Shown here: piece by piece, positions 15,691-16,156 of the stretch
Layout of the letters: each line of letters starts with the position of its first letter
Numbering within the stretch: the stretch's first letter is position 1
NCBI RefSeq assembly: GCF_056712565.1
Contig: NZ_CM160072.1
Strand: one strand, 5' to 3'
Length of the DNA stretch: 64,000 bases
Notes under the pieces: generated by a model
Databases searched by the model: none
Told to the model about the DNA's origin: nothing
What the model saw: only the letters and a program-made list of their open reading frames with translations
Program-made: the position numbers and the translations under genes

Positions 15691-16156
15691 ATGTTTATAC
15701 GACCAGTCAAACCTTCAGATGTTGAACCATTAATGGATATGCTGCTTGACAGGGATCAATTTGATCAAGATGGCCTTCATCATGTACAAAAAACACTAAC
15801 ACATTATTTCTCAGGTCAATCTGCCGATTTATGGTTTAGTGCAGAACACTTGGGACTGGCAGGGATTGCCTACTGTGCTTCTGAAATGATGACAAATGAT
15901 GTCTGAAATTTATTAATGCTCTGGATCAGTCCTTCCCATCAGCGCCAGGGAGTGAGACATCTGCTGATTAACGAAATAGAAAAGAGCTCACAATTAAACA
16001 GGCAAGACTACTATTAGTAGAGACCGCCAGCCATATCGATTTTAGTGCCGCCCGCGCATTTTATACAAAACAGGGCTTTATCAATGAGGCGATAATACGC
16101 AATTACTATGATGTTGGTGAGGATAAATTAATCTTCACTAAAAATATGCAATCGTG
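15691..16156 (+). pseudogene. GNAT-family acetyltransferase disrupted by two frameshifts
   Basis: Track ORF 15691..15906 (71 aa) continues in two other frames (…WNLLMLWISPSHQRQGVRHLLINEIEKS… then …ETASHIDFSAARAFYTKQGFINEAII…), together making a GNAT-like protein. Confidence 0.45.

Follow-up and report, generated by a model that had tools for sequence, protein, structure and literature searches.

Among solved structures, the nearest relative by sequence of the acetyltransferase considered here is PDB 2R7H, a putative GNAT protein of Desulfovibrio (Dde_3044), which is matched over its full length (E=1e-13). The same entry is also the nearest by fold, with a TM score of 0.90 and an rmsd of 1.8 Å to the model of the intact E. 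coli allele. However, the identity between the two proteins is just 25%, and 2R7H, a structural-genomics entry, gives no function; its depositors' alternative name is 'putative D-alanine N-acetyltransferase'. RimI, the S18-alanine N-acetyltransferase (TIGR01575; PDB 5ISV/2CNM), shares the fold and is of similar size, and some sources label homologues 'RimI-like', but its sequence match to the GNAT protein is weak and lies over the acetyl-CoA-binding half. RimI identity was rejected on NCBIfam scores well under the equivalog cut-offs (33.1 bits versus 86.4 for TIGR01575, and 23.6 versus 173 for NF007025). The AAC(6')-Ia aminoglycoside acetyltransferases (NF033078) were rejected as well, with 17 bits versus a cut-off of 265.

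The closest counterparts of all are intact alleles at the yddH locus (products WP_000470660.1, WP_040063150.1 and WP_123000022.1). They have the same position and orientation as the copy in the window (the whole stretch of 64,000 nt analyzed here, from contig NZ_CM160072.1 of assembly GCF_056712565.1), and are colinear with it over 155 codons at 95.7-97% nucleotide identity. The window copy differs from them by a nonsense mutation (W72*), a 1-nt deletion in codons 97-98, the replacement G89R and further replacements at conserved positions. In K-12, by contrast, the slot flanked by ydcC (H-repeat) and yddH holds a whole pptA (tautomerase), a gene unrelated to the GNAT gene. A literature search returned nothing relevant on an acetyltransferase pseudogene adjacent to yddH, or on pptA in connection with yddH.

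A disrupted GNAT family gene beside yddH

The initial annotation, made from the letters of the window, had described the segment 15691-16156 as a GNAT acetyltransferase gene decayed by two frameshifts, whose three short reading frames together reconstruct one protein. When joined, the pieces do align end to end with a single intact family member, the 155-aa E. coli GNAT protein of strain LP5-1 (WP_040063150.1). The nucleotide identity to this allele, which occupies the same chromosomal position, is 95.7% over 468 nt, a value far beyond chance. The reconstructed protein also exceeded the Pfam cut-offs (27 bits for PF13508 and 20.7 bits for PF00583), with scores of 34.3 and 27.2 bits, respectively, and the intact allele gave similar scores. 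This confirmed the identification of a decayed GNAT gene and the origin of its pieces in one protein.

The nature of the damage had to be corrected. Translation of the window placed the three peptide pieces in two frames, not three. From the ATG at 15691, frame 1 reads MFIRPVKPSDVEPLMDML...MMTNDV, reaches a TGA and continues without a change of frame as NLLMLWISPSHQRQGVRHLLINEIEKSSQ..., and both MFIRPVKPSDVEPL... and ...HQRQGVRHLLINEIEKS... belong to this frame. The third piece, ...FYTKQGFINEAII..., lies in frame 3, as does the C-terminal ...ELTIKQARLLLVETASHIDFSAARAFYTKQGFINEAIIRNYYDVGEDKLIFTKNMQS with its closing TGA (16155-16157). In pairwise alignment with the LP5-1 allele, only two disabling differences were found within the gene, namely (i) the TGA at codon 72 and (ii) a 1-nt deletion, so that the supposed two frameshifts are one nonsense mutation and one frameshift. 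Alignment to intact GNAT homologues, which the initial annotation had proposed as a means of placing the indels, identified this deletion as the sole indel. The run at codons 97-98 reads GAAAAAG in intact alleles, and the loss of one A shifts reading into frame 3, so that the original frame is lost for the final 57 codons. No uninterrupted frame across the whole domain is left. The proposed start of the gene was correct, while its stop codon ends at 16157, which gives a length of 467 nt compared to 468 nt (155 aa) in intact alleles. The features of the locus are listed in Table 1.

Table 1. Features of the GNAT locus and its immediate flanks (positions are those of the window).
Feature	Position	Strand	Basis
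ISAs1/H-repeat transposase, internal fragment abutting the GNAT leader	15466..15627	+	89.6% to K-12 ydcC nt 477-639
Retained 5' GNAT leader, 63 nt before the ATG	15628..15690	+	homology to intact alleles starts at ~15628
Shine-Dalgarno-like AAGGAG, 4 nt 5' of the ATG	15681..15686	+	read in the sequence; kept in intact alleles
GNAT N-acetyltransferase, probable pseudogene, ATG to original TGA	15691..16157	+	alignments to intact LP5-1 and four other alleles; Pfam on the reconstructed protein
Piece 1, codons 1-71 and premature stop	15691..15906	+	frame 1; RefSeq 'hypothetical protein' WP_000470661.1
Lesion 1, TGG to TGA nonsense (W72*)	15904..15906	+	alignment to intact alleles
Piece 2, codons 73-98, acetyl-CoA loop motif inside	15907..15983	+	frame 1, as piece 1
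AGA codon (G89R), last glycine of the QRQGVG (Q/RxxGxG/A) acetyl-CoA motif	15955..15957	+	alleles and homologue alignment
Lesion 2, A4 where intact alleles have A5, codons 97-98	15980..15983	+	allele alignments
Piece 3, codons 99-155 and original stop	15984..16157	+	readable in frame 3 only
Diverged pptA 3' remnant, ~45 nt, right cassette edge	16177..16224	+	K-12 homology resumes at 16177
yddH (flavin reductase family), intact convergent neighbor	16223..16792	-	RefSeq

An AlphaFold model of the intact allele (pLDDT 96) was used to place the lesions in the structure. In this test, made on the intact allele, the GNAT alpha/beta fold was found, the best 50 PDB matches of the model being GNAT-fold acetyltransferases. 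In the model, residues 84-89 (QRQGVG) form the acetyl-CoA loop ahead of a helix spanning residues 88-102, and the frameshift position falls within this helix. W72 is the first residue of predicted strand beta4.

Conservation was assessed by aligning the window copy with 49 homologues. Two of these are intact E. coli alleles, and the other 47 are relatives with identities of 36-81%, the named ones of which come from Salmonella, Phytobacter, Enterobacter, Kluyvera, Citrobacter, Serratia, Aeromonas and others. W72 and G89 are each invariant in 48 homologues. The Q/R-x-x-G-x-G/A motif (motif A) is established as an acetyl-CoA-binding element of GNAT enzymes. It reads Q84-R-Q-G-V-G89 in the intact alleles and homologues, whereas the window has QRQGVR, and the last glycine of the motif is gone. 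The other private replacements include S113A at an invariant position, and S21R, G22D and P64S at sites with at least 90% conservation.

From these data we consider it very likely that the segment is a non-functional unitary pseudogene of a single-gene accessory cassette, which encoded a 155-aa GNAT-fold N-acetyltransferase. The lesions are evident against an intact orthologue that occupies this locus in other strains, and they recur in independent assemblies, as is expected of a unitary pseudogene. The premature stop at codon 72 removes strand beta4 and everything beyond it, including the acetyl-CoA-binding half of the protein. No active enzyme would then be made, and at most a 71-aa N-terminal fragment could arise from the retained Shine-Dalgarno sequence and ATG. 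Inactivation would have been followed by neutral drift.

Repeated inactivation and selective constraint

The distribution of the gene was examined by megablast of positions 15600-16230 against 5,426 complete E. coli genomes. The segment was matched in 660 genomes, in 432 of them over its full length, and 415 records were at least 99% identical to the window segment. The 17 full-length records of other types comprise 12 with an open frame, four with K127* (AAA to TAA at codon 127) and one, GF4-3, with a separate frameshift (GAG to AA) located 1-3 nt from the deletion in the window allele. An open 468-nt frame is thus present in only ∼0.2% of the complete genomes. In LP5-1 it is a 'GNAT family N-acetyltransferase' CDS (WP_040063150.1) directly upstream of the convergent yddH, which is followed by nhoA-yddE-narI. 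Another of the 12 open alleles, that of VE-T9 (L022:301-768), carries G87E in the QRQGVG motif and may represent a further inactivation, by missense.

In a further ∼228 genomes, the gene is reduced to its final ∼160 nt. Compared to LP5-1, this allele has a clean 463-bp deletion that takes out codons 1-102 along with 157 bp upstream of the gene. The remaining ∼4,770 of the 5,426 genomes show no trace of it. The alleles show at least four independent inactivations: W72* with the 1-nt deletion, the GF4-3 frameshift, K127*, and the 463-bp 5' deletion. Two of these are frameshifts within the same 5-nt A-rich tract. The pseudogene itself is ordinary and has no bearing on any open question; the locus offers a small example of recurrent independent decay and a possible lineage marker.

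Substitutions were then compared site by site across five E. coli alleles, with 365 nonsynonymous and 100 synonymous sites as the basis for omega. Those private to the window allele comprise 10 nonsynonymous and three synonymous changes (omega ∼0.9), one of the ten (codon 22, third base) being countable as synonymous. On the branches of the open-frame alleles there are four nonsynonymous and eight synonymous changes (omega ∼0.14; binomial p=0.001 versus neutral). The difference between the window and open-frame branches gave a Fisher p of 0.047, or 0.021 with the K127* lineage pooled in, from substitution counts that are small and were polarized by parsimony over the five alleles, without DNA of an outgroup or a correction for recombination. 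These counts agree with relaxed constraint and near-neutral drift of a dead gene in the window lineage, and for the intact alleles they show purifying selection.

The recurrence of knockouts raises the possibility that loss of the GNAT gene was selected, and not merely tolerated, because the acetyltransferase activity carries a cost in E. coli. The number of independent inactivations, together with the rarity of the open frame and the G87E replacement in one of its carriers, would fit this explanation. However, neutral decay of a dispensable accessory gene also yields recurrent loss, the intact alleles show the low omega given above, and the intact 155-aa product occurs on 603 contigs, so some lineages keep the gene. 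We therefore regard selected loss as unlikely. A stronger form, in which the gene is counter-selected in E. coli and its loss is adaptive, e.g., by abolishing an acetylation with harmful effects in the host, seems to us a little less likely again. The gene is dead throughout an entire group of commensal and extra-intestinal strains, with ATCC 11775, Nissle 1917, NU14 and LF82 among its members.

Coding potential of the disrupted allele

One argument against a pseudogene is that the Shine-Dalgarno sequence and ATG are intact, that a 71-aa fragment could be made from them, and that RefSeq treats this fragment as a protein and not as a pseudogene. Retention of piece 1 as a functional small protein would also be in line with its presence on at least 1000 contigs. 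Nevertheless, we judge this very unlikely. The fragment contains only the beta1-alpha1-alpha2-beta2-beta3 portion of the GNAT fold, does not amount to a domain of its own and, according to the structural model, lacks the entire cofactor-binding half, from strand beta4 onward. Within it, seven private nonsynonymous changes (in six codons) stand against two synonymous ones, and three of the replacements fall on sites conserved to 90% or more. Clonal inheritance accounts for how widely the fragment occurs.

Programmed recoding, by which TGA read-through combined with -1 slippage on GAA-AAG would yield some full-length enzyme, appears extremely unlikely. UGA is the leakiest of the stop codons, and tRNA-Lys on AAG might re-pair with AAA one base back, but two independent low-efficiency events would be needed, and an A4 run is too short for efficient slippage. 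The predicted fold after the TGA is weaker than that of shuffled controls (z=+1.0), with no SECIS-like or other stimulatory hairpin, and an Rfam search of positions 15200-16400 gave one chance-level match only. Any full-length product would still carry G89R and the other changes at conserved positions, and the substitutions look neutral.

No convincing sigma-70 promoter or terminator was identified by scans around the intact and window alleles. Profiles of PADLOC-DB, representing defense systems, did not match the intact GNAT protein or the neighbors of its homologue in a Salmonella island.

Fixation of the lesions and database annotation

A repaired query, in which TGA was changed to TGG and A4 to A5, found no match above 99.6% among the 5,426 complete genomes, and 99.6% corresponds to exactly the two lesions. 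Neither an intact version nor a single-lesion intermediate of the window allele was detected in this set, and wherever a complete E. coli genome carries the window allele, the two lesions are fixed. The chance that they are sequencing or assembly errors in an intact gene is practically negligible: the frameshift lies in a short A run, and three other 1-nt homopolymer differences separate the window from a sister strain within 800 bp, but the other lesion is a base substitution and not an indel, and the ∼415 complete genomes with the same allele at 99% identity or more, which come from many laboratories and platforms, share both lesions, with none holding the repaired version. For the same reason, the read-level verification of homopolymer positions called for at the outset is unnecessary, as these independently assembled genomes carry identical lesions and none exceeds 99.6% identity to the repaired allele.

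Carriers of the window allele include ATCC 11775, Nissle 1917, NU14, UM146, LF82, ABU 83972 and ATCC 25922, all of them phylogroup B2 strains. In ATCC 11775, RefSeq annotates piece 1 only, as the 'hypothetical protein' WP_000470661.1, with no pseudogene flag. In a wider protein collection, the 71-aa product was found on at least 1000 contigs and is named 'acetyltransferase' by some sources, and intact 155-aa products occur on 603 and 58 contigs. The pseudogene is already visible in public databases, though under-annotated. The practical value of the present analysis is a corrected annotation: the 216-nt WP_000470661.1 reading frame is the first third of a dead GNAT gene. RefSeq has this entry in E. 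coli genomes by the hundred, the species type strain and Nissle 1917 among them, and its locus deserves a pseudogene flag over 467 nt.

Cassette boundaries and genomic context

As proposed in the initial annotation, the gene lies between an H-repeat remnant and yddH (Table 1). The remnant, labeled 'ISAs1 family transposase, incomplete' in RefSeq, abuts the retained GNAT leader, and ∼50 nt of further upstream sequence that is conserved in intact alleles is absent from the window. A complete ISAs1 element is present upstream of the intact GNAT gene in strain 2014C-3075, which argues that a deletion in the window took the 3' part of the IS together with these ∼50 nt. The deletion that truncated the neighboring ISAs1 would in this way also have removed part of the upstream region of the cassette.

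At the right edge, K-12 homology resumes in a short remnant of pptA, located between the GNAT and yddH stop codons and carrying a 2-nt indel relative to K-12. A tblastn search for pptA in the window found nothing. pptA and the GNAT gene are alternative occupants of one slot, and the GNAT cassette would originally have taken the place of most of pptA beside yddH. The locus is a recombination-prone slot beside H-repeat, Rhs or type VI cargo.

It had also been suggested that the gene and the type VI cargo share one decaying accessory stretch. This holds as far as damage to the neighbors is concerned, which affects yncG, ISAs1 and, through homopolymer indels, the ends of the M35 gene and the gene downstream of it. 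It does not hold for the origin of the gene. The cassette, whose homology starts only at ∼15628, is found beside yddH in differing contexts: with type VI cargo in the window, with Rhs in 2014C-3075 and 2012C-4502, and with only small hypothetical genes in LP5-1 and GF4-3. Since it adjoins yddH in strains without type VI cargo, the GNAT gene is not type VI cargo by origin.

For homologues in other genera, DNA homology is limited to the ORF and the contexts are unrelated: an island with integrase, DUF3987 and AlpA genes in Salmonella, MarR-MFS genes in Phytobacter, and folD-TetR in Yokenella. No conserved neighbors were found among these three, and no functional inference is possible from them. 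The gene is a mobile single-gene cassette, which offers no guilt-by-association clue to its substrate. Runs of small hypothetical genes precede the intact GNAT gene in both LP5-1 (L001:1988-4770) and Salmonella (L010:2739-4727). The runs share no homology, and neither gave a Pfam or PADLOC match.

Gene flux and decay clearly mark the whole yncG-yddH interval. A second piece of ISAs1 was found at 10791-10920, upstream of the PAAR gene; it is the left end of the element and is 91.5% identical to the K-12 ydcC element (L009:7698-7827). A type VI module of PAAR, VgrG, M35 and hypothetical genes (∼11061-15292) lies between the two ISAs1 pieces, and its PAAR and VgrG genes are annotated as intact. 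The yncG gene (glutathione S-transferase family, ∼9920-10520) is frameshifted according to RefSeq in the identical region of ATCC 11775 and in FDAARGOS_536.

Over 13700-15700, the window matches ATCC 11775 with 100% identity, and three 1-nt homopolymer deletions were observed relative to the sister strain FDAARGOS_536. At ∼14510, where the M35 peptidase gene ends, A7 is reduced to A6, with a product of 253 aa compared to 263 aa. At ∼15278-15285, close to the end of the hypothetical gene downstream, A8 is reduced to A7 and T6 to T5, with 239 aa compared to 273 aa. These differences may be real or may be assembly errors in the ATCC 11775-type sequence. Finally, IS elements not present in the window were found in other strains between nhoA and yddE, namely IS621 (L004:6291-7271) and IS1397 (L006:5899-7247 and L007:5893-7241), and the nhoA-yddE interval is an IS hotspot.
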